A DNA stretch of 64,000 nt. It comes from Peptococcaceae bacterium. Lineage in GTDB: Bacteria > Bacillota > Peptococcia > Peptococcales > BICA1-8. Shown here piece by piece: positions 14,685 to 41,649 of this stretch. The notes under the pieces were generated by a model. It made no database searches. It was not told the origin of the DNA and saw only the letters and a list, made by a program, of their open reading frames with translations. A program made the position numbers and the translations under genes. The stretch spans positions 168,542 through 232,541 of the forward strand of contig JBMNCQ010000055.1 in assembly GCA_049366715.1 (NCBI GenBank), read 5' to 3'. The first letter of the stretch is position 1. Every line of letters begins with the position of its first letter.

Positions 14685-15380
14685 ATGGAAGACCAATACC
14701 GGCAAGAAGATCAAATCCAGCCCGGTCCCTGCCCTGTTGACTCTCAAACAGGCATACCAATATGTCCCCCGCCGACAGAAATAGATATAATCAAGGTCAA
14801 AAAAATATTTAATGAATGTATGCATACCCAGGTCGAGGAAATTACCATCGACTTCCCTGCCTCTACCCTGGAGCCTGTGACAGAAATGGCCCAGGAAGCC
14901 GAATGTATCTCAGTAGAAGTATTAAATTCTAATTGTATTATTCTGAACGGGGACGATATTGTAAGATTAACCTTTACCTTAGAGGTGACCAGCAGGGTTC
15001 CTCTGGATAGCGGAGGCTTTCAGCAAGAATCTGCGACCCTCACTGTCCAAAAAACTTTCTCCCTGGACAGAGCCAGTGATGACGGGATTGACGTCCAGTG
15101 CCATGTTTTTCCGTCCTGCCTGTTCTGCTTTATTTCCAGCAGAAATGAATTAGGAAACGTCTCTGAAGTGACCTGCTGTGTGGGCGTGCTGATTCTTCTC
15201 AAAGCAGAGGCTGAAGTGCAATTGTTAATTCCAACTTACGGATATCCGGCTCAACCGCCGGAGTGCGGAGAATTTCTCGGTGAATGCCCCACAGATTTTT
15301 CACCGGACTGGCCCCCTTATCCGCCGCAGTTACTTTTCAGTCAATCTACGGCCACAAGAGCCAGAAGAACAAAAAAATAA
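14685..15380 (+). CDS. Cys-rich conserved hypothetical protein, paralog of 21810..22526
   Basis: 231 aa; about 60% identical by eye to the 21810 product (QPGPCP...GIPxCPPPTEIDIIKV.K.FNECMHTQV ... CCVGVLILLK..AEVQLLIPTYGYP..PPEC.EFLGECPTDF.PDWPPYPPQLLF); GAAGGAGG RBS. Confidence 0.75.
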   Translation: MEDQYRQEDQIQPGPCPVDSQTGIPICPPPTEIDIIKVKKIFNECMHTQVEEITIDFPASTLEPVTEMAQEAECISVEVLNSNCIILNGDDIVRLTFTLEVTSRVPLDSGGFQQESATLTVQKTFSLDRASDDGIDVQCHVFPSCLFCFISSRNELGNVSEVTCCVGVLILLKAEAEVQLLIPTYGYPAQPPECGEFLGECPTDFSPDWPPYPPQLLFSQSTATRARRTKK

Positions 15381-17490: not shown

Positions 17491-17733
17491 CTAAGCACCG
17501 CTGATTTTTATTAAATCCCTTAACACCTTGGCCTCTTCCTCAATATCTAATAGAATCAGTTCTTCCCTGTCATAACTCCTAATATCCACTAATAATGAAT
17601 TATAAATTTCAATATAAATTGTATAGCAATCTTCATTAATTACGGCCGGGAAAACAAAAATTTCCGGAATATCAAGAATTTCTTCTACCAGATAAGCAAG
17701 TTCTCTAATCTTAGTTATTAGTGTTTCATACAT
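17491..17733 (-). CDS. hypothetical acidic small protein (80 aa)
   Basis: ORF with GGGGAG RBS, upstream of the GT4 gene in the same direction. Confidence 0.45.
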   Translation of the reverse strand: MYETLITKIRELAYLVEEILDIPEIFVFPAVINEDCYTIYIEIYNSLLVDIRSYDREELILLDIEEEAKVLRDLIKISGA

Positions 17734-17801: not shown

Positions 17802-17829
17802 TAACATATGACCCGTCAGTATTTAATGT
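17802..17829 (-). promoter_or_regulatory. sigmaK/E-type promoter candidate
   Basis: Minus strand AC-N17-CATATGTTA, 69 nt upstream of ATG at 17733. Confidence 0.4.
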
Positions 17830-21723: not shown

Positions 21724-21751
21724 ACCATTTTACACTTCTTTTCATAGGATA
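21724..21751 (+). promoter_or_regulatory. sigmaK/E-type promoter candidate
   Basis: AC-N17-CATAGGATA, 59 nt upstream of ATG at 21810. Confidence 0.45.
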
Positions 21752-21809: not shown

Positions 21810-22526
21810 ATGACTGATAACTTAAGGCAAGAACAGCAGGTTCAACCCGGGCCTTGTCCCCTTGACCCGGAAACCGGTATCCCGGTCTGCCCCCCACCTA
21901 CGGAAATAGACATTATTAAAGTCAATAAAGTTTTTAATGAATGTATGCACACGCAAGTAGTTGAAGGTGTCATTACCGGCTGGACTACTGCCAATACTAC
22001 AGATGCTACTGAAGCGTCCTGTGATTCTGTCTCAGTAAGTAATGTTACCTGTACTGTTTTAAACGGTAACGATATTGTAAGGGTAACCTTTGAGCTTCAG
22101 GTATGTGCAACTGTACCTTTAGACACCGGCGGCGTTCAGAGATTATGTGCAACTGAAACGGTGACCCGGACCTTAGCTATTGAGAGAGCAAGTGAAGAAG
22201 GCTTAAACGTCCAGTGCCATATCTTCCCGGAATGTTTGTTCTGCTATATCTCGGAAAGGGACAGCGCAACCGGCGGGGTAGAAGCCGTAACTTGTTGTGT
22301 AGGTGTGCTGATTTTATTAAAAGTTGATGCTGAAGTACAATTATTAATTCCTACTTATGGGTATCCCGGACCACCGCCCGAATGTGAAGAATTCTTAGGT
22401 GAGTGCCCGACAGACTTTAATCCGGATTGGCCCCCCTATCCCCCTCAGCTGCTGTTTGGTACTTCCGCAGCGAAAAAAGGCAACGGCACATATGTAAGAG
22501 CTCAGAAAAAAGGATGTAAAAAATAA
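21810..22526 (+). CDS. Cys-rich conserved hypothetical protein, paralog of 14685..15380
   Basis: 238 aa; same conserved blocks as the 14685 product; TAAGGAGG RBS. Confidence 0.75.
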   Translation: MTDNLRQEQQVQPGPCPLDPETGIPVCPPPTEIDIIKVNKVFNECMHTQVVEGVITGWTTANTTDATEASCDSVSVSNVTCTVLNGNDIVRVTFELQVCATVPLDTGGVQRLCATETVTRTLAIERASEEGLNVQCHIFPECLFCYISERDSATGGVEAVTCCVGVLILLKVDAEVQLLIPTYGYPGPPPECEEFLGECPTDFNPDWPPYPPQLLFGTSAAKKGNGTYVRAQKKGCKK

Positions 22527-22813: not shown

Positions 22814-23218
22814 ATGACAACAAAAAAACCACAGCATCATAAGCAATGTGGTTGGCCATACTACGCAATACAGCAAGCCTCTACAACAAATCAGCCTGCT
22901 CTTACAAATGATCTGGTTATTATCGCAGACTGCGTAGCTAATGCTTATGAGAAACTTAATGACGACTTTCTGAAAGAAAAAAACATCGATTTATTGTGCC
23001 CTAAGATTGATAATAACAACCACTGCATCCAAAAACTCAGTAACTTGATCAAACAATACAACATCACAAAAATCATTACCGTAGAAATGGAATTGAAATG
23101 CTGTGGCATCTTAACAAAGCTGGTCAAGCAAGCTGTCGAAAATACCAATCGGAACATTATCATAAAAGAAAAAATTGTGACCAAAAATGGCCAATTAAAA
23201 GAAAAAGGAACGAAATGA
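22814..23218 (+). CDS. hypothetical protein (134 aa, several Cys)
   Basis: ORF with AGAGGTGA RBS; no family recognised. Confidence 0.45.
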   Translation: MTTKKPQHHKQCGWPYYAIQQASTTNQPALTNDLVIIADCVANAYEKLNDDFLKEKNIDLLCPKIDNNNHCIQKLSNLIKQYNITKIITVEMELKCCGILTKLVKQAVENTNRNIIIKEKIVTKNGQLKEKGTK

Positions 23219-23349
23219 CGATTCAGGTAATTTCATTAATCACCTGCTTACCTGTCACTAGTCCCTGATTACTATAATCTATATTTTATATAACGCAAAG
23301 TATCAGATGGGAACCAAAAAACCGCTAACCACCAGTATGTATACCACCT

Positions 23350-23386
23350 AAAAGCTTGTTGACGGAATACCTGTCAACAAGCTTTT
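23350..23386. terminator. bidirectional terminator
   Basis: AAAAGCTTGTTGAC-GGAATACCT-GTCAACAAGCTTTT. Confidence 0.8.
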
Positions 23387-23401
23387 AAGGTTAGCTCTTG
23401 C

Positions 23402-24184
23402 CTATTTTGCTGTAAATATTTCCGTTACATACAAGGTTGAACCGTTTTTATAATCGACACCAATTCCTACATAAGTGTACCCTTCATTTAAAATAGCTGC
23501 CCGGTGTACGGAACTATTCATAAACCCTTGATGAGCTTTCGTAACACTTGAAGTTTTACCTAAATTTTCACCTGCATAGCGAAAATCTACTCCACCATTT
23601 TTCAGCATTGTAGATACTTTTCCGTAAGTTGGTGATTCATGAGCAAAATAGTTATTCTCGATCATATCGTTTGTTTTAACATCTGCCCATTCCGCAAGCT
23701 CTGCATCATAAATAAGCGGGTCTAAACCTTGAGCGGCTCTTTCTTGATTAATCAGTTCAAACAATTGCTGCTCTTCTGCCGATGTTGCACCGGAATCCTG
23801 TGAAGGCTCCGTTGGATCAGGTTCAGCAGGTGTAGGGTCCGGCTGAGGTTCCGGAGTAGGTGTAGAATGATTACCGTTATAATACTTATTATAATAGTAA
23901 TAGGGATTGGACCAATAATTCGGAGCTGCTGTTGTTGCCGCAGGTTCCTGGGTCTCGGGCTCCGCAGATTCTGTTTCCTCTTCTGTTGCCGGAGCTTGTG
24001 TATCCGTATCGGTATCGGTTCCTGTTCCATAATATTTTGCATACCATTCAGGACTTAACCACTGGTTGGTTGCAGCTTCCACCGGGCTTGTCCCCAAACC
24101 GATAAAAACAAATGCAGATAAAAATAAAACAACTAAGCCGGTTTTAACTAGGCTTCTCAATAAAATCCCCTCCATTTTGATCAT
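23402..24184 (-). CDS. secreted CAP/SCP-domain protein (YkwD-like) with TD-repeat and Pro/Glu-rich linker
   Basis: 260 aa; signal peptide; GTDTDTDTQ and PEPQPDPTPAEPDPTEP linker; C-terminal ...LINQERAAQGL..L......A......M......F.H.S..G... CAP-like domain. Confidence 0.7.
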   Translation of the reverse strand: MIKMEGILLRSLVKTGLVVLFLSAFVFIGLGTSPVEAATNQWLSPEWYAKYYGTGTDTDTDTQAPATEEETESAEPETQEPAATTAAPNYWSNPYYYYNKYYNGNHSTPTPEPQPDPTPAEPDPTEPSQDSGATSAEEQQLFELINQERAAQGLDPLIYDAELAEWADVKTNDMIENNYFAHESPTYGKVSTMLKNGGVDFRYAGENLGKTSSVTKAHQGFMNSSVHRAAILNEGYTYVGIGVDYKNGSTLYVTEIFTAK

Positions 24185-24396
24185 AAATATTACCGTCTTT
24201 CATAATTTTAGCCCCTGAAAATAAAGATAGTGCCGGGGACAACTTAACCTTTGCAGCACGTTGTTTCATTCTAAAGCATTAAAAGTTTCTTGACAACGTT
24301 TATATCGGCTCCCTATATGTATTATATCTCTAGTATCGGGGGCATACTTCTAAAATCCCCCCGCCTTTTAAAGTATCGCCTCCCATCCTATTATTG

Positions 24397-25926
24397 CTAG
24401 ATCCTTCTTCGAAAAGGAAATTGAGGATATGGTTTCCGGCTTTTCATTTCTAATTCTTTAAGGTTTTTCACAAGTGCTTTGTTTTCATCTTCTTTTTCCA
24501 TAAATTTATTTCTCAGCTGATTATTTGTGGCTTTTACTACCTCCAGGCTCTGCCTCAGCTTCAGAACTTCTTCCGTTAAATTTTGCAGTTTCTCAACTTC
24601 CTGTTGCAGCTGTTTTTTTTGGTCCTGCTCCTTTTGCAGAGCCTGCTGCAAATTGTCAATTTCCAGAGCCTGTAAAGCTTCCTTTTCTTGCAGAACATTA
24701 ACCTGGTGCGTTTTTTTACTATTTTCCTCTTCCAGCCTGCTTATTAAGCTATTTAGCCCGGCAATTTTTTCTTCCCGGGACCTGTCATTAACCCTATTCC
24801 TTGCAGAAGATTGCCCGAAATTTTTATAATATTTGATCACTTTCCGCCTTTCCCGGCTTAATGGCGGGTTGACTTCCTCCCCGGACTGCTGACCGGCAGC
24901 ATCCTTCAGCAATAAGAATACCGCCGTACTATCCGGCTCTAGCGCCGCTAAATCAATCCCCGGATATTGATCAATATCCAAAGCTAACCGTTTAGCAAAA
25001 TATTTTACCGGCATGAATTGTGTTGTTAACTGCCGGGCGGCCGCGTACTTGTGGATATACTCATTCTCCTGCCAGAAAATTTCTATTTCCGCACCGTTCA
25101 GATAAATAAGAGGTGATAAAGAGACACCTTCTTTAGATGATATGCACTGTTCTTTGAGCCAGCCGGAATTAAGCCAGACTCCTTTCGTTTTGAACTTCCG
25201 GGTATACATGACTCTGGCATTCATATGCTCCAGCCGCAGCCAGGTGATATGCAGATTACCCTCTTGGTCAAAGAGGGCCGCAGGATTAATATTGATACCT
25301 TGTGAAGATGTTATGACACTTTTTAAGCCCCACTGGCTCTCTTTACCCATCCGGTAAACTAACTGGTACTTTCCTTTCTGATAAATCTGGTAGATGAGAT
25401 AAAGGACATCTCCCTGCGTAACGGCAGCACACCCTCCCGGTCCGTTTCCCCAGCCTTTATCAATAACAAAAGAGTCCTGCCACAGCCCATCTCTTTTAAA
25501 ACAGCACCGGATCTTCCACTCTTTCGTCTGGAAATTTTCCGTAATAATGATTACATACATCTTGTCCCCACTAAAACCTATTTTTTGAAAAGTAATCTTA
25601 TCCCTTTTTTCCAGCCCGATATTAATTATTTCAGGAGAATCTTCGCCCAAAGAATGACATATGATCTGCTCCAGATGATTTTTATAACTAATATAGAAAT
25701 GATTAGCAGGACTTACCCCCATCGTAAATAAACCTGAAAAATCTTTTCTTAGCTCCCGGAAACGGCTTTCTCCAGGATAATAAATATAAAAAGAACCGTC
25801 CTCCACCTTTAGTGTCCATTCTTGCCCGAGTCCTATAATCTCCAGTTGATTAGAGCCAAAAAGACCGTAATTTTCCTCCATTTCAGCACCACCTAAATAA
25901 TTAAACTCCCATTGTATCTTATTCAA
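24397..25926 (-). CDS. hypothetical 509-aa protein: beta-rich N-terminal region plus about 130-aa C-terminal coiled coil
   Basis: C-terminus LQEKEALQALEIDNLQQALQKEQDQKKQLQQEVEKLQNLTEEVLKLRQSLE...; no enzymatic motif. Confidence 0.6.
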   Translation of the reverse strand: MNKIQWEFNYLGGAEMEENYGLFGSNQLEIIGLGQEWTLKVEDGSFYIYYPGESRFRELRKDFSGLFTMGVSPANHFYISYKNHLEQIICHSLGEDSPEIINIGLEKRDKITFQKIGFSGDKMYVIIITENFQTKEWKIRCCFKRDGLWQDSFVIDKGWGNGPGGCAAVTQGDVLYLIYQIYQKGKYQLVYRMGKESQWGLKSVITSSQGININPAALFDQEGNLHITWLRLEHMNARVMYTRKFKTKGVWLNSGWLKEQCISSKEGVSLSPLIYLNGAEIEIFWQENEYIHKYAAARQLTTQFMPVKYFAKRLALDIDQYPGIDLAALEPDSTAVFLLLKDAAGQQSGEEVNPPLSRERRKVIKYYKNFGQSSARNRVNDRSREEKIAGLNSLISRLEEENSKKTHQVNVLQEKEALQALEIDNLQQALQKEQDQKKQLQQEVEKLQNLTEEVLKLRQSLEVVKATNNQLRNKFMEKEDENKALVKNLKELEMKSRKPYPQFPFRRRI

Positions 25927-25976
25927 GCCAAACGGCCGCTATGAAAAAAATTCACTTTAATTTTCAATATAGGATA

Positions 25977-26003
25977 ACAAAAAAAAGCGATTCCCATAAG
26001 ATA
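25977..26003 (+). promoter_or_regulatory. sigmaK/E-type promoter candidate
   Basis: AC-N16-CATAAGATA, 42 nt upstream of ATG at 26045. Confidence 0.45.
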
Positions 26004-26044
26004 TAATGAGTAACCTTAATTACAGTGGAAAGGAGGAACCTCGC

Positions 26045-26194
26045 ATGGCAGAAGCTGTAGGTCAATATGGATATGGATATGGATGTAATGCATTTTGTAA
26101 TGAATTTTTCTTTGAAACATTATTAATGATTATCATTATTATGTGGTTGTTAAAATGGCTCTTTGGATTTGGTTTTGACGGAGCTTACTGTTAG
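26045..26194 (+). CDS. tiny membrane protein, family A (49 aa)
   Basis: MAEAVGQYGYGYGCNAFCNEFFFETLLMIIIIMWLLKWLFGFGFDGAYC; AAAGGAGG RBS; the track ORF 26006..26194 is an N-terminal over-extension. Confidence 0.75.
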   Translation: MAEAVGQYGYGYGCNAFCNEFFFETLLMIIIIMWLLKWLFGFGFDGAYC

Positions 26195-26373
26195 ATTTTA
26201 AAAAATCCCTCTCCTGACCATGGGGACATATCCCAACCTGTAAAATCAGGGATACTCCCTGGCCCGATGTTATCCCTGTAAGAATAGATATTCCCTGTTC
26301 TCTTGAGGAGATATGTCCCTTTTCCATGCTAAGCATTTATGCCAATTTTTTTTCGAAAGGAGGGCCAGTATTT

Positions 26374-26847
26374 ATGCCGCAAGATAGAAATAAAGATCCT
26401 AAAAACATGAGAGGCTTTGACCCCAATACAATTTACTCCCTGTTTGATTCCTTCAACAACTTGAGTAATGCCTTTAAACAACTAAACTTACCCAATATGA
26501 CTAAATTCCTTTATTTTAACCCCCCTAATCCTGCTCATAAGCCTAAAGGAGGTAAAAAATATTTTAAGCCTGCTAAGCCCACTAAACCTGCAAAACCCGG
26601 CAAACCACAAAAACCTCTGAACTTTAACGGTTTTTTGAAAGCCTTTTCCGATGGTTTAAATGCCTTAAATTTTTCGAATCCTTTTAGGCTAAAGAGACAA
26701 CCAGGTTCTTTTCCCCGTTCATCCAGAAGAATCATTGTCAAAAGGACCTTTCTGTCTAATCAATTAATTGTTGTAAAACCGCCGGGGTATACAGAAAAAG
26801 ACACTCCGGAGGAAATCATAACGGAGGAAACCATAACCGAGGAATAA
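26374..26847 (+). CDS. Lys/Pro-rich low-complexity protein (157 aa)
   Basis: Start set at MPQDRNK (AAAGGAGGG 9 nt upstream); HKPKGGKKYFKPAKPTKPAKPGKPQKP tract. Confidence 0.55.
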   Translation: MPQDRNKDPKNMRGFDPNTIYSLFDSFNNLSNAFKQLNLPNMTKFLYFNPPNPAHKPKGGKKYFKPAKPTKPAKPGKPQKPLNFNGFLKAFSDGLNALNFSNPFRLKRQPGSFPRSSRRIIVKRTFLSNQLIVVKPPGYTEKDTPEEIITEETITEE

Positions 26848-26984
26848 ACTCTGTTGAGTGTCTCCTCCAGGCCCTTTATGAACCGAATCTTGCTATTATC
26901 TTCCCTGGTCACTGTACAACACTACCGATCAGGATTAGATCCGTTTCAAAAAATAGAAGAAAGGCACCCAAATGGATGCCTTTT

Positions 26985-27335
26985 TTATTCTTCCTCCACT
27001 TTTGCCATTTCTGCTTCCGCTATTTCTTCAACTACCTCGGCTATCTCTTCTGCTGCCTCATCCATAGGTTCTACCTGTGCTTCCGGCTGATACCCCTTTT
27101 TACTTTTTTCTGCCGGTCTTACCGGTTTTCTAGGTGCAAAAATACCTGCTATTTTACTGCTTCCTTTGGCGACTATTTCTATCTGAGGTGCGAAATTTTC
27201 TATAGAGCTTAAAAGTTGATCAAAGTTATCAGCGAACATCCTTAAATTATTTGTTACTCCCTTTAGATTAGAGACAGTCCTAAGCAAGGGCTTTGTTCTA
27301 CTGAGATTTTCATAACCTTTGCCATACTGTGACAT
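26985..27335 (-). CDS. hypothetical protein with FAD-x2-D-x-LL-x-S-x-E motif and acidic tail (116 aa)
   Basis: AAAGGAGG RBS; motif region SNLKGVTNNLRMFADNFDQLLSSIENFAPQIEIV aligns with the 28125 product; 28 nt downstream of 27364..27777. Confidence 0.6.
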   Translation of the reverse strand: MSQYGKGYENLSRTKPLLRTVSNLKGVTNNLRMFADNFDQLLSSIENFAPQIEIVAKGSSKIAGIFAPRKPVRPAEKSKKGYQPEAQVEPMDEAAEEIAEVVEEIAEAEMAKVEEE

Positions 27336-27363
27336 CTTCTTCCTCCTTTCAATTCAGCAAACA

Positions 27364-27777
27364 TCAATCATAACTGAATAACCATTTTAAAAGCCAAAAA
27401 ATAATAATTTGCATGAAAAGCGCTTCAAAAAAGCAATTATTGTTACATACCCTTTCCGGAAATGCTTCATAACCTACAGCTTCATCTTCTTCCTCCAGGG
27501 TTACCGGATGATTAACTTCAACATTTTCAGCCGGTGGTAAATGAGCTCCTAAACCATAGGCTTTCACCGGTTTTTGAGGCGGAAATACATTTTTCAGAAT
27601 TCCCTTTGTTACTCCTGTAAGAAGACTTTGCCCGGACCTGGGAGTTTTGGGGAATTCTTTGCTGCTATTAACAGGATTCTTCTGCATTTCTTGCTTTGCT
27701 ATGTTTATTTTTTCCCGGGGCTTTTTATCTTGTAAACTGTTGTGCTTTTGATTCCCATAAGTATCTAACTCAGCCAT
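27364..27777 (-). CDS. 137-aa protein whose C-terminus is a family-A tiny-TM module (fusion form)
   Basis: C-terminal CNNNCFFEALFMQIIIFWLLKWLFSYD* matches stand-alone family A peptides; TAGGAGGGG RBS. Confidence 0.7.
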   Translation of the reverse strand: MAELDTYGNQKHNSLQDKKPREKINIAKQEMQKNPVNSSKEFPKTPRSGQSLLTGVTKGILKNVFPPQKPVKAYGLGAHLPPAENVEVNHPVTLEEEDEAVGYEAFPERVCNNNCFFEALFMQIIIFWLLKWLFSYD

Positions 27778-27813
27778 CCTCTGCTACCCCTCCTAAAAAA
27801 ACATTTACACTAA

Positions 27814-27841
27814 TATAATATGTAGAACATTAAGTACTTGT
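27814..27841 (-). promoter_or_regulatory. sigmaK/E-type promoter candidate
   Basis: Minus strand AC-N17-CATATTATA, 37 nt upstream of ATG at 27777. Confidence 0.45.
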
Positions 27842-28066
27842 TTGCAGAATATAGCAATTAACTCAGGGCCACTTACTTTTTTCCCGGTACTTATGAATGA
27901 TAAAAAATCTGAATTGTTACTATTTTTTTACCACTGCATGAGAAAGTAATTTTTTTAACCGGCATCTGTCTCACTTAAATATTGAGAAAACAGTACTGAT
28001 CTAAAATTTGCACTTCTTTAAAATTGCTTCCAATAAAAAATCCACTTTTATATTTTTATATTTGTC

Positions 28067-28094
28067 ACATTTTATGAATTAATTCCATAAAATA
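28067..28094 (+). promoter_or_regulatory. sigmaK/E-type promoter candidate
   Basis: AC-N17-CATAAAATA, 31 nt upstream of ATG at 28125. Confidence 0.45.
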
Positions 28095-28124
28095 AGGTAA
28101 ATCTTAAGCGAAGGAGTGTGACAG

Positions 28125-28712
28125 ATGCCCCGCTACAGAAAAATAACACCTGTAAATATTAATGAGCAAGAACGAATTCTAAGTGAAAAGTTCAATCAGA
28201 ATAGACCTAAGTACAAAAAAACAGTAAGGAGAACCCAGAGACCTAATGAAAATCCTTTATTACCTTTATACCAATTAAAAACCAAACTACAACGTTCTTT
28301 TGAAAATAGAAGCACCCAGGAAGTCGTCTTTGATACTTGTAAAAGTTTAAGAGGGATCTGCGGTCAAGTCCGGTCTTTTGCCGATGAAGTTGATAACCTC
28401 CTAGGTTCGGTAGAATCCATTGTTCCGGTTATGGAAACAGTAGTATCCAGCTATGCCCGTTCTTTAAAAAATAAAGAGCAGCCCATTTTAGAGAAAGATA
28501 AAATCCCTGCGGAGGAAACAAACAAGGCCAAAGAAGACCAAAGTACTGATAACGAAAATCCAATCCGGGAAAATACAGCTGATAAAACTTCCAAAATGCC
28601 TGCCAAAATGCCGTCGGAAATGGAAATCAAAGAGTTCCTGAACAATCCCCTGGTGGCAAGTTTACTACAAAATTTAACGCAAAAGATGATGACAAATAAA
28701 CAGCAGCAGTGA
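28125..28712 (+). CDS. hypothetical 195-aa protein sharing the FAD-x2-D-x-LL-x-S-x-E motif
   Basis: KSLRGICGQVRSFADEVDNLLGSVESIVPVMETV (14/34 identical to the 26985 product by eye); GAAGGAG RBS. Confidence 0.6.
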   Translation: MPRYRKITPVNINEQERILSEKFNQNRPKYKKTVRRTQRPNENPLLPLYQLKTKLQRSFENRSTQEVVFDTCKSLRGICGQVRSFADEVDNLLGSVESIVPVMETVVSSYARSLKNKEQPILEKDKIPAEETNKAKEDQSTDNENPIRENTADKTSKMPAKMPSEMEIKEFLNNPLVASLLQNLTQKMMTNKQQQ

Positions 28713-28833
28713 ACCGGTTCCGTCCGGTTAATCGTCTATAGCTAAGAGCAGGTAGCTCATACAACAGTCAGCCGGTGACACCAGATATTCCTTCACTGAG
28801 CGGCTGTTTTTTTTACCCTTTTTATTTTTCCAC

Positions 28834-28864
28834 AAAAAATACCCCTCGGTAAGGGGTATTTTTA
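28834..28864. terminator. bidirectional terminator
   Basis: AAAAAATACCCCT-CGGT-AAGGGGTATTTTT between convergent genes. Confidence 0.75.
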
Positions 28865-28866
28865 AG

Positions 28867-29067
28867 TTAAAAGGGTAATCCTAATTTGCTTATTAATTTT
28901 TGTGTTAATTCTTCCATTTGCTCCTTGCTTTTTATTCCACCGGCAGCTTCGATTTCTGCGATCACCTCATTTATCACCTTTCTTTTGTCTTCAGGTAAAA
29001 ACATTTCGAATTGAGCAACAATTGCTTTTAACTCCTCAATGCTTTGCGGCATTTGAAATTGATTCAT
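28867..29067 (-). CDS. hypothetical helical small protein (66 aa)
   Basis: ORF 16 nt downstream of 29084..29503; GGGAGG RBS. Confidence 0.5.
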   Translation of the reverse strand: MNQFQMPQSIEELKAIVAQFEMFLPEDKRKVINEVIAEIEAAGGIKSKEQMEELTQKLISKLGLPF

Positions 29068-29083
29068 AATTAACCTCCCGCTT

Positions 29084-29503
29084 TTATTTTATTGTCCTGC
29101 TGTATATAGGAGTATAGGTCTTTTCCTCCCGTAAAGAATTATCTACTCTTCTGGAATACAATACCGTATGCTTTGTTTCAGGTTGAGGGGCTTTTGCCTT
29201 TTTGGTTCTTTTCGGTTCCATAACCCGGGAATATAATACACTATGATTCTCTTTAGGGTCTTCGGCAATTGCTTCAATAACTTTCCTTTCCGGCAGATCT
29301 TCTTCCTTCCCAATCGTTCTGTTAAATAATACTTTTATTTCGTCAGATGTGATCGTATCTTTAACCTCTTCCTCCTCTTTGGATCTTACCGTTCCCCACG
29401 GCCTTAAAAATCCGCTGCCCTGGCTAAAGAATGCCAAAAATACAACAGCTATTAACAGAAAAATACTAAAAGATTTGTTTTCATTATCATAAAGACCAAA
29501 CAT
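29084..29503 (-). CDS. N-terminally anchored protein with three (V/I)(L/P)YSR repeats (139 aa)
   Basis: TM helix FSIFLLIAVVFLAFF; HSVLYSRVMEP..., HTVLYSRRVDN..., YTPIYSRTIK*; AAAGGAGGGAG RBS. Confidence 0.55.
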   Translation of the reverse strand: MFGLYDNENKSFSIFLLIAVVFLAFFSQGSGFLRPWGTVRSKEEEEVKDTITSDEIKVLFNRTIGKEEDLPERKVIEAIAEDPKENHSVLYSRVMEPKRTKKAKAPQPETKHTVLYSRRVDNSLREEKTYTPIYSRTIK

Positions 29504-29564
29504 TTTACTACTCCCTCCTTTTGTCCCAAAGTTTAAAAATTAATGAAAAGCTTTAATTCTGATT

Positions 29565-29591
29565 CATTTTATGCGCAAAAAAATTAAGTGT
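29565..29591 (-). promoter_or_regulatory. sigmaK/E-type promoter candidate
   Basis: Minus strand AC-N16-CATAAAATG, 62 nt upstream of ATG at 29503. Confidence 0.35.
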
Positions 29592-29706
29592 TCCTAGATC
29601 ACATGATTTTTGAATTCCAATTAATTACAATTTGCCCCTTCCTGCTTAGCACGGGAAAATAAAGTTTTACTATATTTTTTAATGCTGAGCGGTAAATTTA
29701 TTTATC

Positions 29707-29734
29707 ACCTTTATGATTTGCCCCTCATAAAATA
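29707..29734 (+). promoter_or_regulatory. sigmaK/E-type promoter candidate
   Basis: AC-N17-CATAAAATA, 32 nt upstream of ATG at 29766. Confidence 0.45.
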
Positions 29735-29765
29735 TAAGCAACGAACAGGCAAGGAGGTCTGGGAA

Positions 29766-29876
29766 ATGAATACCAACTGGCATAATCTCAACATGTATTT
29801 TTTTGAAACGATCCTGATGGTCATAATTATCTTTTGGCTTTTACGCTGGTTATTCAGCAGCAATTACACAGCCTGA
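29766..29876 (+). CDS. tiny membrane protein, family A (36 aa)
   Basis: MNTNWHNLNMYFFETILMVIIIFWLLRWLFSSNYTA; CAAGGAGG RBS; the track ORF 29682..29876 is over-extended. Confidence 0.7.
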   Translation: MNTNWHNLNMYFFETILMVIIIFWLLRWLFSSNYTA

Positions 29877-29889
29877 TCCATTCCAGTGC

Positions 29890-29919
29890 AGAGTAAGTTT
29901 TTAACTTACTCTTTTTTTT
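29890..29919 (+). terminator. rho-independent terminator
   Basis: AGAGTAAGTT-TTT-AACTTACTCT-TTTTTTT. Confidence 0.85.
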
Positions 29920-30009
29920 GGTCAATCCACCGCCAGACATTGATTCTCTTAAAGTATTATATGTATTCGGCTGTAAAAAGTTTATGACTTTTCTTGTAAA
30001 CTTAAATGC

Positions 30010-30036
30010 ACAGTTTAGAGAGTACTTCATAAGATA
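30010..30036 (+). promoter_or_regulatory. sigmaK/E-type promoter candidate
   Basis: AC-N16-CATAAGATA, 47 nt upstream of ATG at 30083. Confidence 0.45.
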
Positions 30037-30082
30037 TTACTGTAAACGATAACTATTACGCTCATGAAAGGAGGATTTTTAC

Positions 30083-30229
30083 ATGGCTGATAAAACTGCT
30101 AGCCAATTTGGTTTCTTTGGTGGGGAGTGTTTCTTTAACGAATGCTTCTTCGAAACTCTTTTAATGATAATCATAATTTACTGGCTTTTAAGGTGGTTAT
30201 TTGGTTTTAACTACTATGGTGCTGTTTAA
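30083..30229 (+). CDS. tiny membrane protein, family A (48 aa); not in ORF track
   Basis: MADKTASQFGFFGGECFFNECFFETLLMIIIIYWLLRWLFGFNYYGAV; AAAGGAGG RBS. Confidence 0.8.
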   Translation: MADKTASQFGFFGGECFFNECFFETLLMIIIIYWLLRWLFGFNYYGAV

Positions 30230-30286
30230 AAATTAAGCCGAGCACAAATGTCCCGGGAAAATATGTTCTTGAAAGGGGGCCTTTAC

Positions 30287-30406
30287 ATGGCAGACGGGTA
30301 CGGAAGTTGCTTTTTTAACGAATGTTTCTTTGAAACATTATTAATGATTATTATTATCTACTGGCTCTTAAGGTGGTTATTCGGCTTTAACGGCTTTGGT
30401 GTTTAA
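30287..30406 (+). CDS. tiny membrane protein, family A (39 aa); not in ORF track
   Basis: MADGYGSCFFNECFFETLLMIIIIYWLLRWLFGFNGFGV; AAAGGGGG RBS. Over the 26 shared codons it differs from the 30083 copy at 11 codons, all synonymous. Confidence 0.8.
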   Translation: MADGYGSCFFNECFFETLLMIIIIYWLLRWLFGFNGFGV

Positions 30407-30419
30407 GGCTTCTCAGATA

Positions 30420-30455
30420 AAGGGTAAAGATGGATTCCACCTTTACCCTTTTATT
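30420..30455 (+). terminator. rho-independent terminator
   Basis: AAGGGTAAAG-ATGGATTCCAC-CTTTACCCTT-TTATT. Confidence 0.7.
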
Positions 30456-30516
30456 AACTGGCAAATTCAAATTTTTAGGAAGTGAAATTTTACATAAGAG
30501 GGGGTTTTGATTAATA

Positions 30517-30645
30517 ATGACTGAAGAAAGCAGACAATACGGATATGGCGGCTTTCCTTTCGGGGGCTACTGGTGGATTTGGATAATAATAGGTGTATTA
30601 TTTTTCTTATTCTTCTTTGGCGGATGCGGCTTTGGTCCCTGCTAA
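30517..30645 (+). CDS. tiny membrane protein, family B-like / YjcZ-like (42 aa); not in ORF track
   Basis: MTEESRQYGYGGFPFGGYWWIWIIIGVLFFLFFFGGCGFGPC; AGAGGGGG RBS. Confidence 0.65.
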   Translation: MTEESRQYGYGGFPFGGYWWIWIIIGVLFFLFFFGGCGFGPC

Positions 30646-30685
30646 AATTTTTTTATCTAATATTAAAAATGAGAGGAGAATCATC

Positions 30686-30802
30686 ATGGCTGATAATGTT
30701 GCCGGTCAATTTGGTTTTGGCTACGGTTACCAATGGCTGGTTTGGGTGGCTATAATCGCCTTGGTCATTTACTTATTCGCATTTCCTTGCTGTGGAATAT
30801 AA
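30686..30802 (+). CDS. tiny membrane protein, family B / YjcZ-like (38 aa)
   Basis: MADNVAGQFGFGYGYQWLVWVAIIALVIYLFAFPCCGI; GAGAGGAG RBS; the track ORF 30593..30802 is over-extended. Confidence 0.75.
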   Translation: MADNVAGQFGFGYGYQWLVWVAIIALVIYLFAFPCCGI

Positions 30803-30834
30803 AAAAAAGGGCAGATAATACTGCCCTTTTTTTA
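30803..30834 (+). terminator. rho-independent terminator
   Basis: AAAAGGGCAG-ATAATA-CTGCCCTTTT-TTT. Confidence 0.85.
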
Positions 30835-30841
30835 TACATTA

Positions 30842-30869
30842 ACCGTTTATTAAAAAATATCATAGTATA
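30842..30869 (+). promoter_or_regulatory. sigmaK/E-type promoter candidate
   Basis: AC-N17-CATAGTATA, 44 nt upstream of ATG at 30913. Confidence 0.45.
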
Positions 30870-30912
30870 TATTGTAAACAAAATATAGCCACTCTGGAGA
30901 GGGGGTTAGCAT

Positions 30913-31035
30913 ATGGCTGATAATGTTGCCGGTCAATTCGGTTACGGTTTTGGCAACCAATGGCTGGTTTGGGTAGCTTTAATCGCTTTGATCATCTATG
31001 TGATCTGCTTCCCATACGGCGGGGGATACTGTTAG
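30913..31035 (+). CDS. tiny membrane protein, family B / YjcZ-like (40 aa); not in ORF track
   Basis: MADNVAGQFGYGFGNQWLVWVALIALIIYVICFPYGGGYC; GAGAGGGGG RBS. Confidence 0.8.
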   Translation: MADNVAGQFGYGFGNQWLVWVALIALIIYVICFPYGGGYC

Positions 31036-31121
31036 CCTTAATGAGAAGGGGTAGCGGTTCCAAACATGAACAACTAATACTAAGTCTTTATGAATTATCT
31101 ATCCTGAAAGGAGGTCACTAT

Positions 31122-31250
31122 ATGGCTGATAATGTTGCCGGTCAATTCGGTTACGGTTACGATTACGGTTCCCAATGGCTGGTCTGGGTAGCTTTAATCG
31201 CTTTGATCATCTATATTTTCTGCACCCCATACGGGGGCGGCTGGTGTTAA
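31122..31250 (+). CDS. tiny membrane protein, family B / YjcZ-like (42 aa)
   Basis: MADNVAGQFGYGYDYGSQWLVWVALIALIIYIFCTPYGGGWC; AAAGGAGG RBS; the track ORF 30960..31250 is over-extended. Confidence 0.8.
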   Translation: MADNVAGQFGYGYDYGSQWLVWVALIALIIYIFCTPYGGGWC

Positions 31251-31354
31251 TCTCGAGCCCAAGGGAGCATTAAATCCCTTCGGCTTAACCTTAAAAAGTT
31301 ACTACGTAATATCGGATACTGATTTATGATCTTTGGAAAGGAGGTTAATCACAT

Positions 31355-31477
31355 ATGACGGATAATGTTGCCGGTCAATTCGGTTTTGGTTATGGCAGTC
31401 AGTGGCTGATCTGGGTAGCTTTAATCGCTTTGATCATCTATATTTTCTGCACCCCATACGGCGGAGGATGCTGCTAA
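31355..31477 (+). CDS. tiny membrane protein, family B / YjcZ-like (40 aa); not in ORF track
   Basis: MTDNVAGQFGFGYGSQWLIWVALIALIIYIFCTPYGGGCC; AAAGGAGG RBS; shares a 52-nt identical run with the 31122 copy. Confidence 0.8.
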   Translation: MTDNVAGQFGFGYGSQWLIWVALIALIIYIFCTPYGGGCC

Positions 31478-31517
31478 TCTAATAAAAAGGGATTCTTAAC
31501 GCCCTTTCCGGAATGTC

Positions 31518-31557
31518 AAAAAAAACCATGTTTCAAAATTTTGAAACATGGTTTTTT
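31518..31557. terminator. bidirectional terminator
   Basis: AAAAAAAACCATGTTTCAAA-AT-TTTGAAACATGGTTTTTT between convergent genes. Confidence 0.85.
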
Positions 31558-31579
31558 GATATTCCCTATCCTTTAATAG

Positions 31580-31921
31580 TCAGACAATCTGAACCAGTGC
31601 TTTATCCACATCATCGGCAATCGTAAAAATTTTATCAAGTTTTGCAAATCCGATTATCTTTTTCACATACTCCGTCATACCTGCATACACAATTTGGCCC
31701 TGCCCCTGATTCATATATTTAAATAAAGAAATGAGCATTCCCAACCCCGAAGAATCAAGCATAGGCACCTGAGACAAATCCAATACCAACTTATTAGCCT
31801 GAGAATTCTTTAATTCCTCTTTAATCTTCTCCTTTAAATCATTTGAGTACAATAAGGTTACTTCACCTTTAATGCTGGCCACTAAAATATCTTTCTCCTG
31901 GTTTAATACTAATTCAGCCAT
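31580..31921 (-). CDS. STAS-domain anti-sigma-factor antagonist (SpoIIAA/RsbV-like), orphan
   Basis: 113 aa; ...LVLDLSQVPMLDSSGLGMLISLFK... (conserved phosphorylatable Ser context DSSGLG). Confidence 0.8.
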   Translation of the reverse strand: MAELVLNQEKDILVASIKGEVTLLYSNDLKEKIKEELKNSQANKLVLDLSQVPMLDSSGLGMLISLFKYMNQGQGQIVYAGMTEYVKKIIGFAKLDKIFTIADDVDKALVQIV

Positions 31922-32125
31922 TCTTTACACCTTCCTTTATTCTCCTTCTTACTGACTTTCTTTTTTATACGCAGGGAACGAATAAGAATATATAGTTTTT
32001 ATTTTTCGCCAAAAAACAGAAAAACCCTTTAATTCTACATATTCTTACCTTTTTTAGTAATAATAATTTGTGATAGTCATAATAAGTCGGAATCTTGATC
32101 AACATATACCAAAGCGGGGATTTGC

Positions 32126-33751
32126 ATGAAGATAAAAAAGTTAAAGTTTTTGCAGTTTTTAATCAGTCAAAAACCCCTTAAACCCTTCTGGGACAATGAA
32201 AACACCAGAAGCCGCAGCAACGGAGATCAGAATAATGAGAAACTGACCGCCAGCTTGGAAAAAAATATAAAAATGCTGAAAAGTACCTTGGGAGAAAGCA
32301 GCGATATCGTATATCACAGATTTACCATGGGTACGGAAGGAAGACCGGAAGCTGTCCTGATTATGGTTGACGGTATAGTAGATAAAAATACGGTTAATAA
32401 TTTTGTGATCAAAACACTGATGATTGATAGTCAAGTTACGAACAATAAAAGCGGGCTCTACCCCAACTATACCATCGACACGATTAAAAATACCCTGGTG
32501 TCCGTCGGAGGCATACAAGAGGCTGTCTTCCTCAGGGATATTATAGACAATATTCTGGCCGGGGATACTGTCTTAGTAATAAACGGTTTTAATATCGGAC
32601 TCATCATCAGTACCAGGGGCTGGAAAAGCCGGGGCATTGAGCAGCCTGAAACAGAGTCAGGGGTTCGCGGCCCTCATGACGGCTTCACCGAAACACTGCG
32701 CATAAATACGGCCTTAATCCGCCGCCGGATCAGAAATCCCGCTCTTACTTTTGAATCTTTTATCATTGGGAAACGGACCAAAACCGATATCGCTGTCGTT
32801 TACTTAAAAGGCATCGTTAAGCCCGGCTTAGTGGAAGAAATAAAAAAGCGCTTACAAAGGATAGATAATGATGCCATCCTGGAATCTGGATATATCGAAC
32901 AGTTCATTGAGGATGCTCCCCTTTCTCCTTTCAGTACCATAGGTAATACCGAAAGGCCGGACATCGTAGCAGCAAAACTTTTGGAAGGACGGGCAGCAAT
33001 TATCACCGATGGAACACCGGTAATTCTTACCATGCCGATGATTTTTTTGGAAAGCTTTCAAGCCGCGGAAGACTATTACTCCCGCCCCTATTATGTAAGT
33101 ATCGTAAGAGCCCTGAGGTTCCTTTCTTTTTTTATAAGTGTCTTTGGCCCGGCTTCTTTTGTAGCCTTAACAAGCTTTCACCAGGAATTGATACCCACAC
33201 CGTTATTGCTAACCATGGCTGCGGCCCGGGAAGGTACTCCTTTCCCCTCCGTCATTGAAGCAACTCTCATGGGGATAGCTTTTGAAATCCTGAGGGAAGC
33301 CGGTATCCGCCTGCCCCGGCCTGTTGGTACGGCCATCAGCATCGTAGGGGCATTGGTAATTGGGGATGCGGTAGTATCGGCAGGATTAATCGGCGCTCCC
33401 ATGGTTATTGTCGTAGCCATCACAGCCATTGCTTCCTTCGTCGTCCCCCCTCAGGCCGACGTCGGGGGAATAGCCAGAATCATCCTGGTGTTTATGGCCG
33501 GTTTTTTAGGGGCCTTCGGTATCATGATCGGCCTTTTAGGAGGACTGATCCATATTTGTGCCTTAAGATCTTTTGGTACACCTTACTTTTCTCCTTTTGC
33601 CCCGCTTAAAATTTCCGATCTCAAAGATACTATTGTCCGGTTTCCTTTGTGGGCCATGCTCACCAGACCTTCCAGCATGGGCTGGAATAACCCTGTTAGA
33701 GAAGACTTGGGGAATATGCCGGCCCCACCCCAGAAAAAGAAACAGCCTTAG
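32126..33751 (+). CDS. spore germination protein, GerA-family A subunit
   Basis: 541 aa; soluble N-terminal domain plus C-terminal TM bundle; typical blocks RRRIRNP, ESGYIEQFIED, FPSVIEA. Confidence 0.85.
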   Translation: MKIKKLKFLQFLISQKPLKPFWDNENTRSRSNGDQNNEKLTASLEKNIKMLKSTLGESSDIVYHRFTMGTEGRPEAVLIMVDGIVDKNTVNNFVIKTLMIDSQVTNNKSGLYPNYTIDTIKNTLVSVGGIQEAVFLRDIIDNILAGDTVLVINGFNIGLIISTRGWKSRGIEQPETESGVRGPHDGFTETLRINTALIRRRIRNPALTFESFIIGKRTKTDIAVVYLKGIVKPGLVEEIKKRLQRIDNDAILESGYIEQFIEDAPLSPFSTIGNTERPDIVAAKLLEGRAAIITDGTPVILTMPMIFLESFQAAEDYYSRPYYVSIVRALRFLSFFISVFGPASFVALTSFHQELIPTPLLLTMAAAREGTPFPSVIEATLMGIAFEILREAGIRLPRPVGTAISIVGALVIGDAVVSAGLIGAPMVIVVAITAIASFVVPPQADVGGIARIILVFMAGFLGAFGIMIGLLGGLIHICALRSFGTPYFSPFAPLKISDLKDTIVRFPLWAMLTRPSSMGWNNPVREDLGNMPAPPQKKKQP

Positions 33752-40990: not shown

Positions 40991-41199
40991 ACTAGTGATC
41001 AGCGAAGTGACTAACGAGAAAAACTAATCACTATTACACTAATCACTAGGAATCTAATCTAATATTATTCAGAAAAAATTCATCTATGACAATGGAATAA
41101 TTTAGAACATAGATTACCGGCCCTAGCGCATAGTTCATCGAACATAAATTAGAGCGGATATGATATCGGCCGGAGCTCAGAGAACCGGGAACTGAGTAC
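40991..41199. repeat. heptanucleotide repeat block D in a divergent promoter region
   Basis: ACTAGTG ATCAGCG AAGTGAC TAACGAG AAAAACT AATCACT ATTACAC TAATCAC TAGGAAT CTAATCT. CATAGATTACCG (41108-41119) is identical to 19531-19542. GCTCAGAGAACCGGGAACTGAG lies at 41175-41196. Confidence 0.7.
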
Positions 41200-41290
41200 A
41201 ATTATTTTAAAATTAGAAAAATCATCCATTTCTAAAAATTTTTTTGGTGAATAATAATAACTATAACTTTGGAATTAAGGTGGAAACAAG

Positions 41291-41554
41291 ATGCTGAAAA
41301 TAGTTTTAGGAATGGGAATTTTAAGAATAATATCTGCTTTAATAGAATTATCTGCCGCTTTATTAATGCTGTATTTTAACCGGGTTGAAACTGCATTTAA
41401 AATAAATGCCTGCTTAGCATTAATCGGTCCTTTAATTATGATCAGCGTAACATCTTTAGGATTAATCGGTCTGGCCGGCAAAATATCCGTAAGGCAAATA
41501 TTTTTTATTTTTTCAGGTGTAGGTCTAATATTTTACGGTTTAAACAAGATCTGA
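41291..41554 (+). CDS. YqhV-like (DUF2619) small membrane protein
   Basis: 87 aa; GMGILRIISALIELSAALLMLYFNRVE..A..IN..LALIGP pattern as in B. subtilis YqhV. Confidence 0.7.
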   Translation: MLKIVLGMGILRIISALIELSAALLMLYFNRVETAFKINACLALIGPLIMISVTSLGLIGLAGKISVRQIFFIFSGVGLIFYGLNKI

Positions 41555-41649
41555 TCAATTTATCTAAAATTACAAATCATAAAAATCCTTCAAAAGAACA
41601 AACTATGATTGTAAGAAAATTTAAGTTTTTGAAGGAGGCCCTTTATATT

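Follow-up and report, generated by a model that had tools for sequence, protein, structure and literature searches.

The window analysed here comprises 64,000 nucleotides of contig JBMNCQ010000055.1, a 243.8-kb contig in the metagenome-assembled genome (MAG) of an uncultured 'Peptococcaceae bacterium' (locus tags ACOWWO_135xx). Between a gene coding for a YkwD-type CAP-domain protein (23402-24184, minus strand) and a gene coding for a STAS-domain protein (31580-31921, minus strand), it contains a 7.4-kb island of small genes, which is the subject of this work. A first-pass annotation had described this island as about 17 small genes forming a candidate module of the spore surface, and the features it described were found in place, with small corrections. 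Genes were called from open reading frames (ORFs) in six frames combined with inspection of the sequence, and start codons were refitted to the ribosome-binding sites (RBS). The island of small genes was recovered, with 16 RBS-supported genes rather than about 17. Each of the 16 has a GGAGG-like RBS 5-12 nt upstream of its start, in agreement with the earlier description. For several genes the longest ORF starts too early; the corrected products of G1, A1 and G3 have 494 (not 509), 49 and 157 amino acids (aa), respectively. The genes of the island and the flanking CAP gene are the following.

23402-24184, minus strand: YkwD-type CAP-domain gene (TIGR02909, 1.5e-39, and Pfam CAP); conserved downstream partner of G1
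24397-25881, minus strand: G1, 494 aa; predicted BNR-like beta-propeller and coiled coil; RBS-supported start
26045-26194, plus strand: A1, 49 aa; tiny membrane protein of family A; RBS GGAAAGGAGG
26374-26847, plus strand: G3, 157 aa; Lys/Pro-rich, soluble; RBS AAAGGAGGG
26985-27335, minus strand: F1, 116 aa; F-domain (TKPL-RTV...R-FAD-F-QLL-S-E)
27364-27777, minus strand: A2, 137 aa; Pro/Lys-rich N-terminus, family A transmembrane segment at the C-terminus (tail-anchored form)
28125-28712, plus strand: F2, 195 aa; helical and disordered; F-domain
28867-29067, minus strand: G7, 66 aa; soluble, helical
29084-29503, minus strand: G8, 139 aa; N-terminal membrane anchor and repeats
29766-29876, plus strand: A3, 36 aa; family A; RBS CAAGGAGG
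30083-30229, plus strand: A4, 48 aa; family A
30287-30406, plus strand: A5, 39 aa; family A; RBS GAAAGGGGG
30517-30645, plus strand: B0, 42 aa; Gly/Tyr-rich tiny membrane protein with Cys-containing tail, related to family B
30686-30802, plus strand: B1, 38 aa; family B
30913-31035, plus strand: B2, 40 aa; family B
31122-31250, plus strand: B3, 42 aa; family B
31355-31477, plus strand: B4, 40 aa; family B

The Prokaryotic Genome Annotation Pipeline (PGAP) has annotated 13 of the 16 genes, all of them as hypothetical proteins. As judged from the locus-tag series and exact-sequence look-ups, the remaining three (A3, A5 and B1) are apparently absent from that annotation. All three have an RBS, and the orthologues in their families are under purifying selection. 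Scans of Pfam and NCBIfam gave no significant match for any of the 16 products, and the flanking genes matched TIGR02909 (YkwD), CAP and STAS in the same scans. No description of the island families was found in the literature either; with no match in the two libraries or in publications, the set could not be mapped onto any described module, as the first-pass annotation had stated. A search of Rfam over positions 23000-33000 gave no family at threshold and no riboswitch, and with relaxed thresholds only sub-threshold terminator-like matches appeared. The G+C content of the island (0.35-0.41) is below that of its flanks. From hydropathy (Kyte-Doolittle, 19-residue window, above 1.7), one membrane helix each is predicted in 11 of the 16 products, namely A1-A5, B0-B4 and G8 (at its N-terminus), while the other five are predicted to be soluble. 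All nine tiny proteins (36-49 aa) are among the predicted membrane proteins; ten had been counted before.

Tiny membrane proteins and their partners

Family A comprises A1, A3, A4 and A5, and the same membrane core is found at the C-terminus of A2; family B comprises B1-B4 together with the related B0. The family A core, FFETLLMIIIIxWLL(K/R)WLF, spans 19 residues, 14 of which are invariant across 19 sequences. The orthologue of A2 in locus L018 (related loci are given by L numbers) is likewise a longer Pro/Lys-rich protein and carries the same YGLGA motif and membrane core. Since it ends these two longer proteins, the family A helix seems to behave as a C-terminal membrane anchor. The two families of tiny proteins named in the first-pass annotation could be told apart, but they are related to each other: both start with MADNVAGQ(F/Y)G, and profile-profile comparison matched them with 95% probability (E 1.7e-8, a value which composition bias may inflate). 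Many A and B proteins have a Cys at the C-terminus or within a few residues of it. Orthologues of B0 with 70-84% identity occur in L001-L003, L005 and L007-L010, and pattern matches were obtained in L021 and L025.

Five further proteins accompany the tiny ones. The Lys/Pro-rich protein mentioned earlier is G3, of which a weak homologue in L011 immediately follows a family A gene; both have the C-terminal motif IIVKRTFLSNQLIV. The FAD-x2-D-x-LL motif reported for two proteins was found in F1 and F2. Homologues of F1 are 44-60% identical in L004, L017 and L018, where they are always flanked by a family A gene and G1, and F1-type homologues are present in all loci of gut lineages. Orthologues of F2 are 39-49% identical in L005, L007, L014 and L017. 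The AlphaFold2 (AF2) model of F2 consists mostly of isolated helices and disordered linkers (predicted template-modelling score of 0.27), with the F-domain and its FAD motif inside a long helix (residues 64-117); the N- and C-terminal motifs of the protein are conserved. The most conserved partner of the tiny proteins is G7, which is 43-74% identical in every related locus. A divergent family A gene was found alongside in every G7 locus, and the G7 profile gave no match against the sequences of the PDB. G8, the first gene of the G8-G7 operon, codes for the membrane protein to which three xLYSR-type repeats had been ascribed. Two of its (V/I)(L/H)(Y/F)SR repeats match the scan pattern and the third, PIYSR, was read from the sequence. 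The number of repeats varies from three in the window to seven in L009 and L012, and the protein from 120 to about 200 aa.

G1 had been described as a coiled-coil protein of 509 aa. After correction of its start, the protein is laid out as a BNR-like propeller (residues 12-302, approximately), which a linker joins to a helix forming a coiled coil (366-480), with a conserved YPxFPFxRR tail at the C-terminus, thus a propeller on a coiled-coil stalk. A word-indexed search with G1 returned G1 alone because coiled-coil words swamped the candidates, and an exhaustive phmmer search with the N-terminal 350 residues was done instead. It gave 10 orthologue-type matches below 1e-30 and also hundreds of repeat proteins, with 1e-15 to 1e-24 for carriers of BNR_4; the sampled ones carry BNR_4 or BNR_2. 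The AF2 model (mean predicted local distance difference test of 81) shows an all-beta domain and one helix of 115 residues. Foldseek matched it with probability 1.0 (E 1e-8 to 1e-6) to the glycoside hydrolase BT3686 (5muk), to 4irt and 3h6j and to the PLL/PHL fucose lectins (5c9l among them), and additionally to putative neuraminidases and polysaccharide lyases. The G1 profile searched against PDB sequences also found 4irt (2.5e-5) and 5muk. G1 has no Pfam BNR match (BNR_4, PF15892, or BNR_2) and stays below every Pfam threshold; its orthologues P0044 and P0049 reach BNR_4 at E 0.003-0.005, with about 17 bits at a cut-off of 27.3. Taken together, G1 is modelled as a BNR-like beta-propeller with a carbohydrate-binding or -processing type of fold. 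The earlier statement that no product has a recognisable domain is therefore valid for Pfam and NCBIfam with all 16 products, but not for G1 when phmmer, AF2 and Foldseek are considered.

In an alignment of 13 G1 sequences, invariant positions are occupied by F, W, Y, D, N, H, G or P; W122, W134, D141, W184, N197, D205 and H211 are among them. No column with invariant or near-invariant Arg was found in it, hence G1 has no conserved Arg triad of the sialidase type. The basic-aromatic tail of the family, YP-x-FPF-x-RR(K/I) (24397-24440 in the window), follows the coiled coil and is conserved in the orthologues; it could be a targeting or anchoring peptide. A G1-type gene adjoins a CAP gene in L004, L018, L030 and L032, distant loci included, one of which also holds genes for YabG, YheC/D and sugar-nucleotide enzymes.

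Selection, gene order and rarity

Between genomes, synonymous change amounts to about 0.77 (saturated) and non-synonymous change to 0.16-0.22, which corresponds to a ratio of non-synonymous to synonymous change (dN/dS) of about 0.10-0.13. Non-synonymous change was the lower of the two in 455 of 455 between-genome pairs. Judged from these comparisons, the ORFs of the island are real genes under purifying selection. Relatives of all 16 genes are found in conserved gene order in about seven uncultured lineages of Clostridia/Peptococcaceae. Synteny, which the first-pass annotation had put forward as a check, was encountered as conserved gene strings, of ORFs which with a dN/dS of about 0.1 are not random.

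Hit contexts and tblastn revealed a fixed array in several lineages, consisting of G7 and G8 (minus strand), three A genes, B0 and two B genes (plus strand), the STAS gene (minus strand) and gerA. The order G7-G8-A-B-STAS-gerA is kept in L001, L005, L007, L009 and L012. In most relatives, a glycosyltransferase cluster (one GT2 and two GT2-TPR genes) sits between the F2 orthologue and G7. L014 and L017 have the string F2-G7-(G8)-A-B-STAS-gerA without this insertion, with F2 directly upstream of G7; no match to G8 was obtained in L014 by tblastn. The string A(2)-F1-G1-CAP is present in L004 and L018, and L017 keeps A-F1-G1 on a contig which ends inside G1. The A-G3 pair recurs in L011. From these arrangements it is concluded that several strings make up the island, namely A2-F1-G1-CAP, A1-G3 and F2 / G8-G7 / A-B-STAS-gerA, and that it is not the single module that had been proposed.

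Loci of the gut type have G7 on the minus strand facing A, an F-domain gene and a second A gene (A'). In L021 this set is extended to G7 facing A-F-A'-B0 and adjoins a SpoIIM-like gene. The module of the gut lineages is located near SpoIIM, hcp and miaA and has neither gerA nor a STAS gene alongside; its A and B0 relatives carry Cys-rich tracts of the CGCGCG type.

The families are rare. A profile search of 5.8 billion proteins gave 16 family A clusters and 17 family B clusters; every one of them derives from metagenomes or MAGs and is named 'hypothetical'. In 185,579 species genomes, 14 loci with family A were detected, which represent about five MAG species of environmental origin and several MAGs of gut Peptococcaceae. 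The source environments include Opalinus Clay borehole (BRH) samples, subsurface and bioreactor samples for L001-L012 and gut samples for L019-L024. G7 was found at five loci among 241 million metagenome records, each with A and usually F alongside. No relative of family A was found in 2.9 million viral contigs, and a phage origin was rejected.

As for the STAS gene that ends the array, in L007 (11225-12373), L009 (11341-12489) and L010 (10584-11732) it adjoins a gene for a response-regulator/PP2C phosphatase with SpoIIE domain, so that a PP2C-STAS partner-switching pair lies between the cluster of tiny genes and gerA. The PP2C gene is absent from the window and from L001 and L005, where STAS alone remains.

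Promoters and transcription units

The motif AC-N16/17-CATAnnnTA, which we take to be the sigma-K consensus (Helmann and Moran, 2002), was counted 18 times over both strands of the 64-kb window. The island has nine of these copies, where a first-order Markov model predicts 0.37, and none of 1000 simulations exceeded three. Sites of the sigma-70 type are not enriched (27 versus 24 +/- 5 expected), and patterns of the sigma-E type gave zero matches within the island. Six copies of the motif lie 30-47 nt upstream of the start codons of A1, A2, F2, A3, A4 and B2, and a seventh unit, G8-G7, has a copy with one mismatch. The two-block structure of the sigma-K motif is documented (PMC517825). By this promoter sequence, the units of A1, A2, F2, A3, A4 and B2 would belong to a sigma-K regulon.

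25977-26003, plus strand: sigma-K-type motif of the A1-G3 unit, ACAAAAAAAAGCGATTCCCATAAGATA, 41 nt upstream of A1
27814-27841, minus strand: sigma-K-type motif of the A2-F1 unit, ACAAGTACTTAATGTTCTACATATTATA, 36 nt upstream of A2
28067-28094, plus strand: sigma-K-type motif of F2, ACATTTTATGAATTAATTCCATAAAATA, kept in L005, L007, L014 and L017
29565-29591, minus strand: sigma-K-type motif with one mismatch, G8-G7 unit, CATAAAATG
29707-29734, plus strand: sigma-K-type motif of A3, 31 nt upstream
30010-30036, plus strand: sigma-K-type motif of the A4-A5 unit, 46 nt upstream of A4
30842-30869, plus strand: sigma-K-type motif of the B2(-B3-B4) unit, 43 nt upstream of B2
26960-26983, both strands: bidirectional intrinsic terminator of G3/F1, -14.3 kcal/mol
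29890-29912: terminator 3' of A3
31522-31555: bidirectional terminator 3' of B4

A generic terminator scan yielded nine terminators (7.6 expected) and missed several clear hairpins; it was therefore repeated with ViennaRNA. Strong hairpins followed by a T-run (-10 to -17 kcal/mol) were found 3' of F1, F2, G7, A3, A5, B1 and B4. On the basis of terminator placement about nine transcription units were defined, namely [A1-G3], [A2-F1], [F2], [G8-G7], [A3], [A4-A5], [B0-B1], [B2-B4] and [G1], which agrees with the short units on alternating strands of the earlier description. G3 is probably co-transcribed with A1. The claim that almost every unit has the promoter motif is borne out as a strong enrichment, but the motif is present in only six or seven of the about nine units.

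The motif is also conserved in the relatives. In orthologous loci, 22 of 47 genes of family A, 6 of 14 of family B and all five of the F2 type are preceded by it, compared with 3.5% of random windows. The F2 motif is at the same distance in five lineages, the B2-type motif also precedes the last gene of family B in L005, L007 and L009, and upstream of G8 the footprint ACAC-N16-GCATAttATG is kept across six lineages. Family A genes of the gut lineages have kept the motif as well. In the promoter of the first family A gene of these lineages (L019-L029), a conserved block TAATGTGAGTGAG directly follows the -10 box CATAGGATA; it may be the site of a second regulator, for example a GerE-like protein.

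Most of the nine motifs outside the island precede genes, among them the YutH/CotS-like gene at 10052 and the genes at 15661 and 21810; others precede the small ORFs 14203-14430, 17491-17733 and 41957-42211. The YutH/CotS-like protein (10052-11086, plus strand, 344 aa) had no match in the Pfam copy scanned, but its homologue in L004 (72% identical) carries PF27663 (Spore_coat_YutH) in a precomputed table; the two Pfam copies are apparently of different release. The neighbourhood of the island in the window comprises the YkwD/CAP gene, the YutH/CotS-like gene, GT2-TPR and GT4 glycosyltransferase genes and gerA. In relatives YabG, YheC/D and SpoIIM are found in addition.

Other small genes of the window deserve mention. 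The gene at 21810-22526 (plus strand, 238 aa) is preceded by a strict sigma-K-type motif (21724-21751) and codes for a Cys-rich paralogue of the 231-aa protein encoded at 14685-15380 (plus strand), with which it has the N-terminal motif PGPCP...PPPTEIDIIKV in common. The 238-aa protein has no match in Pfam or NCBIfam and the 231-aa protein none in Pfam. Two paralogues with 52-65% identity occur near the YutH-like gene in L004. These Cys-rich proteins are probably further undescribed spore-surface proteins. The ORFs 14203-14430 (minus strand, 75 aa) and 17491-17733 (minus strand, 80 aa) lie directly downstream of strict sigma-K-type motifs at 14439-14465 and 17802-17829 and adjoin the GT2-TPR and GT4 glycosyltransferase genes. 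Finally, a 1.3-kb gap among long ORFs with 33% G+C (40995-42315) holds an ORF for a multi-helix membrane protein of 87 aa (41291-41554, plus strand), an ORF of 93 aa and one of 84 aa (41957-42211, minus strand), which a strict sigma-K-type motif precedes by 34 nt; further small genes of late sporulation may be located here.

Candidate role, alternatives and related systems

With a probability of roughly 0.6, we consider the island to be a late mother-cell sporulation gene set for the spore envelope, acting at the interface of the outer forespore membrane and the coat. Its genes would be transcribed late in the mother cell from the sigma-K-type promoters, and the products would assemble where the outer forespore membrane meets the spore coat or a polysaccharide layer. 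A, B, B0 and A2, with a head rich in Gly, Tyr, Phe and Cys, one hydrophobic helix and a short tail often ended by Cys, would be micro-proteins anchored by their tails in the membrane that surrounds the forespore, where they would form a dense anchoring layer that could be cross-linked via Tyr and Cys. The soluble, helical or disordered proteins G7, F1, F2 and G3 would be adaptors or scaffolds, and G8 an N-terminally anchored repeat protein. In G1, accompanied by the neighbouring YkwD/CAP protein, a lectin-like propeller held on a coiled-coil stalk would bind or trim a glycan of the spore surface, the product of the GT2-TPR and GT4 glycosyltransferases encoded nearby.

The promoter motifs and the gene context point to sigma-K dependence, expression in the mother cell and a location at the forespore membrane or coat; the cross-linking and the binding of glycan are likewise proposals. 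The earlier proposal of a role in coat, crust or exosporium is in line with the spore context and the sigma-K-type motifs, but because a membrane anchor is predicted for 11 of the 16 products, a place at the outer forespore membrane or the base of the coat is favoured rather than crust or exosporium specifically. Several points weigh against such a role. No convincing promoter motif was found for G1 and for the B0-B1 unit, and the motif of G8-G7 is mismatched in every lineage. The promoter assignment uses a consensus defined in Bacillus, and sigma-E and sigma-K motifs are alike. The near-invariant core of family A suggests a specific partner in the membrane and not a generic anchor. The propeller matches of G1 are moderate (target-normalised TM-score of 0.5-0.6) and may reflect the general propeller fold only. 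In addition, a role at the outer forespore membrane presupposes that this membrane persists in these spores, and the organism is an uncultured MAG; the support comes from sequence, gene context and models.

Other explanations were considered for the same genes. That the ORFs arose by chance in AT-rich, non-coding or decaying DNA is suggested by the low G+C content and the lack of database family matches, but this has a negligible probability and is refuted by the dN/dS of about 0.1 with saturated synonymous sites, by the RBS at every gene and by orthologues in conserved order in about seven lineages; the confident AF2 model of G1 argues against it as well. A less remote alternative is that A, B and B0 are timed holin-like peptides aiding mother-cell lysis and spore release, with G7 and the F proteins acting as inhibitors or chaperones until then. 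Very small, hydrophobic, multicopy proteins with late-type promoters would suit such a function, an antidote role would match their constant association with small soluble proteins, and in L004 the neighbouring cluster includes a glucosaminidase gene. A lysin gene is not consistently found alongside, however, and the tiny proteins are without the charged C-terminal tail typical of holins. Their near-invariant membrane core and strong purifying selection fit a structural interaction better, the fusion of the same helix to a long Pro/Lys-rich domain in A2 suggests anchoring, and viral contigs gave no family A relatives. Overall, a holin-like function appears unlikely.

Type I toxins of toxin-antitoxin systems, or bacteriocin or cannibalism peptides unrelated to spore structure, were also envisaged for the tandem paralogues, which code for hydrophobic peptides shorter than 50 aa and in several cases have a promoter and a terminator of their own. 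The Rfam search, which covers known RNA families, gave no family at threshold around the island. No double-glycine leader is seen in the A and B alignments and no dedicated exporter, peptidase or immunity gene in the island or the related loci, for which reason a class II bacteriocin cluster was rejected; the only ABC transporter genes of the window lie outside the island and are paired with an NMT1-type substrate-binding protein. The stable gene order across lineages, with genes that are not mobile, the viral contigs devoid of family A and the conserved sigma-K-type promoters all speak against toxins or bacteriocins, which we hold to be highly improbable. Only slightly better placed, and still very improbable, is the view which assigns the tiny membrane proteins, as accessory subunits, to the GerA-type germinant receptor encoded alongside or to the STAS partner-switching module. 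It takes its appeal from the position of the A-B cluster, which adjoins STAS and gerA in every environmental lineage with a sequence that extends far enough. Ger receptors are forespore products expressed under sigma-G and reside in the inner spore membrane, beyond the reach of mother-cell proteins. The receptor role was rejected because the module of the gut lineages lies elsewhere, near SpoIIM, hcp and miaA and away from gerA and STAS, and because the promoters are of the mother-cell type; the STAS gene, for its part, is on the opposite strand behind a bidirectional terminator.

Going beyond the spore-envelope role, A, B and B0 might represent one unrecognised superfamily of tail-anchored micro-proteins, defined by common head, near-invariant helix and Cys tail. 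With the G7 and F-domain partners, it would build a cross-linked layer in or on the outer forespore membrane and so anchor the coat and the spore glycan in a Peptococcaceae clade including gut members, in a role like that of SpoVM/SpoIVA but unrelated to them. This more specific proposal is speculative and rather improbable as it stands. If the island proteins do build or anchor outer layers of the spore, they would explain how a glycosylated spore surface is attached in this clade, and they would add a new class to the few micro-proteins with an organising role in bacterial cell envelopes. That spore-formers have orphan coat genes specific to their lineage is expected. To our knowledge, very little has been learned about the molecules of spore envelopes outside Bacillus and C. 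difficile. The locus defines at least five new families (A/B/B0, F-domain, G7, G8 and G3) and a propeller-stalk protein paired with YkwD, with comparative evidence of function and co-inheritance and with a conserved late-sporulation promoter signature. The arrangement of gut Peptococcaceae, G7 facing A-F-A'(-B0), offers a compact minimal set. Tiny proteins are systematically missed in annotation, as three of nine were by PGAP here. All carriers found are uncultured, and the result is useful rather than startling.

Among the systems described so far, YjcZ and SpoVM/CmpA come closest in mode of action. CdeC and CdeM of C. difficile and CotY and ExsY of Bacillus are Cys-rich, low-complexity proteins that could cross-link outer spore layers. 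The CGCGCG-type tracts of the A and B0 relatives in gut lineages resemble them, but these proteins are larger, soluble and not membrane-anchored, and no homology was detected. SpoVM and CmpA of B. subtilis are small mother-cell proteins that anchor and control the coat at the outer forespore membrane (PMC10730256). The role proposed for A and B is similar in that very small proteins made in the mother cell would link membrane and coat. SpoVM is an amphipathic surface helix, controlled by sigma-E and present in a single copy, whereas A and B are multicopy proteins with fully hydrophobic, predicted membrane-spanning helices and sigma-K-type promoters; no homology was detected.

Proteins of the YjcZ family are tiny sporulation membrane proteins that are often overlooked in annotation (PMC11796252). 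The Bacillus family YjcZ (TIGR01732, 'tiny_TM_bacill') resembles A, B and B0 in layout, with less than 50 aa, a Gly-rich head, one hydrophobic helix and several paralogues; YjcZ is linked to sporulation, and several A and B genes have sigma-K-type motifs in a context of spore genes. Membership of B0 and the other tiny proteins in this family was ruled out with the TIGR01732 model (cut-off of 21.35 bits, 26 positions): B0-B4, A5 and a B0-like relative gave no match at E <= 1 or E <= 10 and A1-A4 none at E <= 0.1, while a YjcZ-like sequence used as positive control reached 49.1 bits (E 3.3e-13). The sequences of the transmembrane cores are different (FFETLLMIIIIxWLLRWLF and WLVWVALIALIIY), and A and B have the common MADNVAGQ(F/Y)G head, Cys-ending tails and a gene order fixed with G7 and F. 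The CD1980.2 family of C. difficile consists of multicopy small membrane proteins promoting sporulation; its members have 58 aa, are controlled by c-di-GMP (cyclic diguanylate) riboswitches, act at sporulation initiation and are reported to have no homologues outside C. difficile (bioRxiv 10.64898/2026.06.10.731418). The island proteins are not homologous to them, no riboswitch was found for them, and their promoters are of the late mother-cell type.

The N-terminal domain of G1 is predicted to have the same fold as the BNR_4/sialidase-like and PLL-type lectin propellers (5muk BT3686, 4irt, 5c9l PLL). It differs from these by the lack of a conserved Arg triad of the sialidase type, by the fusion to a coiled coil of 115 residues with a basic-aromatic tail and by the pairing with YkwD/CAP in sporulation loci. 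Altogether, the families of the island are new and very rare, but they belong to a known kind of system, the lineage-specific late sporulation genes, micro-proteins included.

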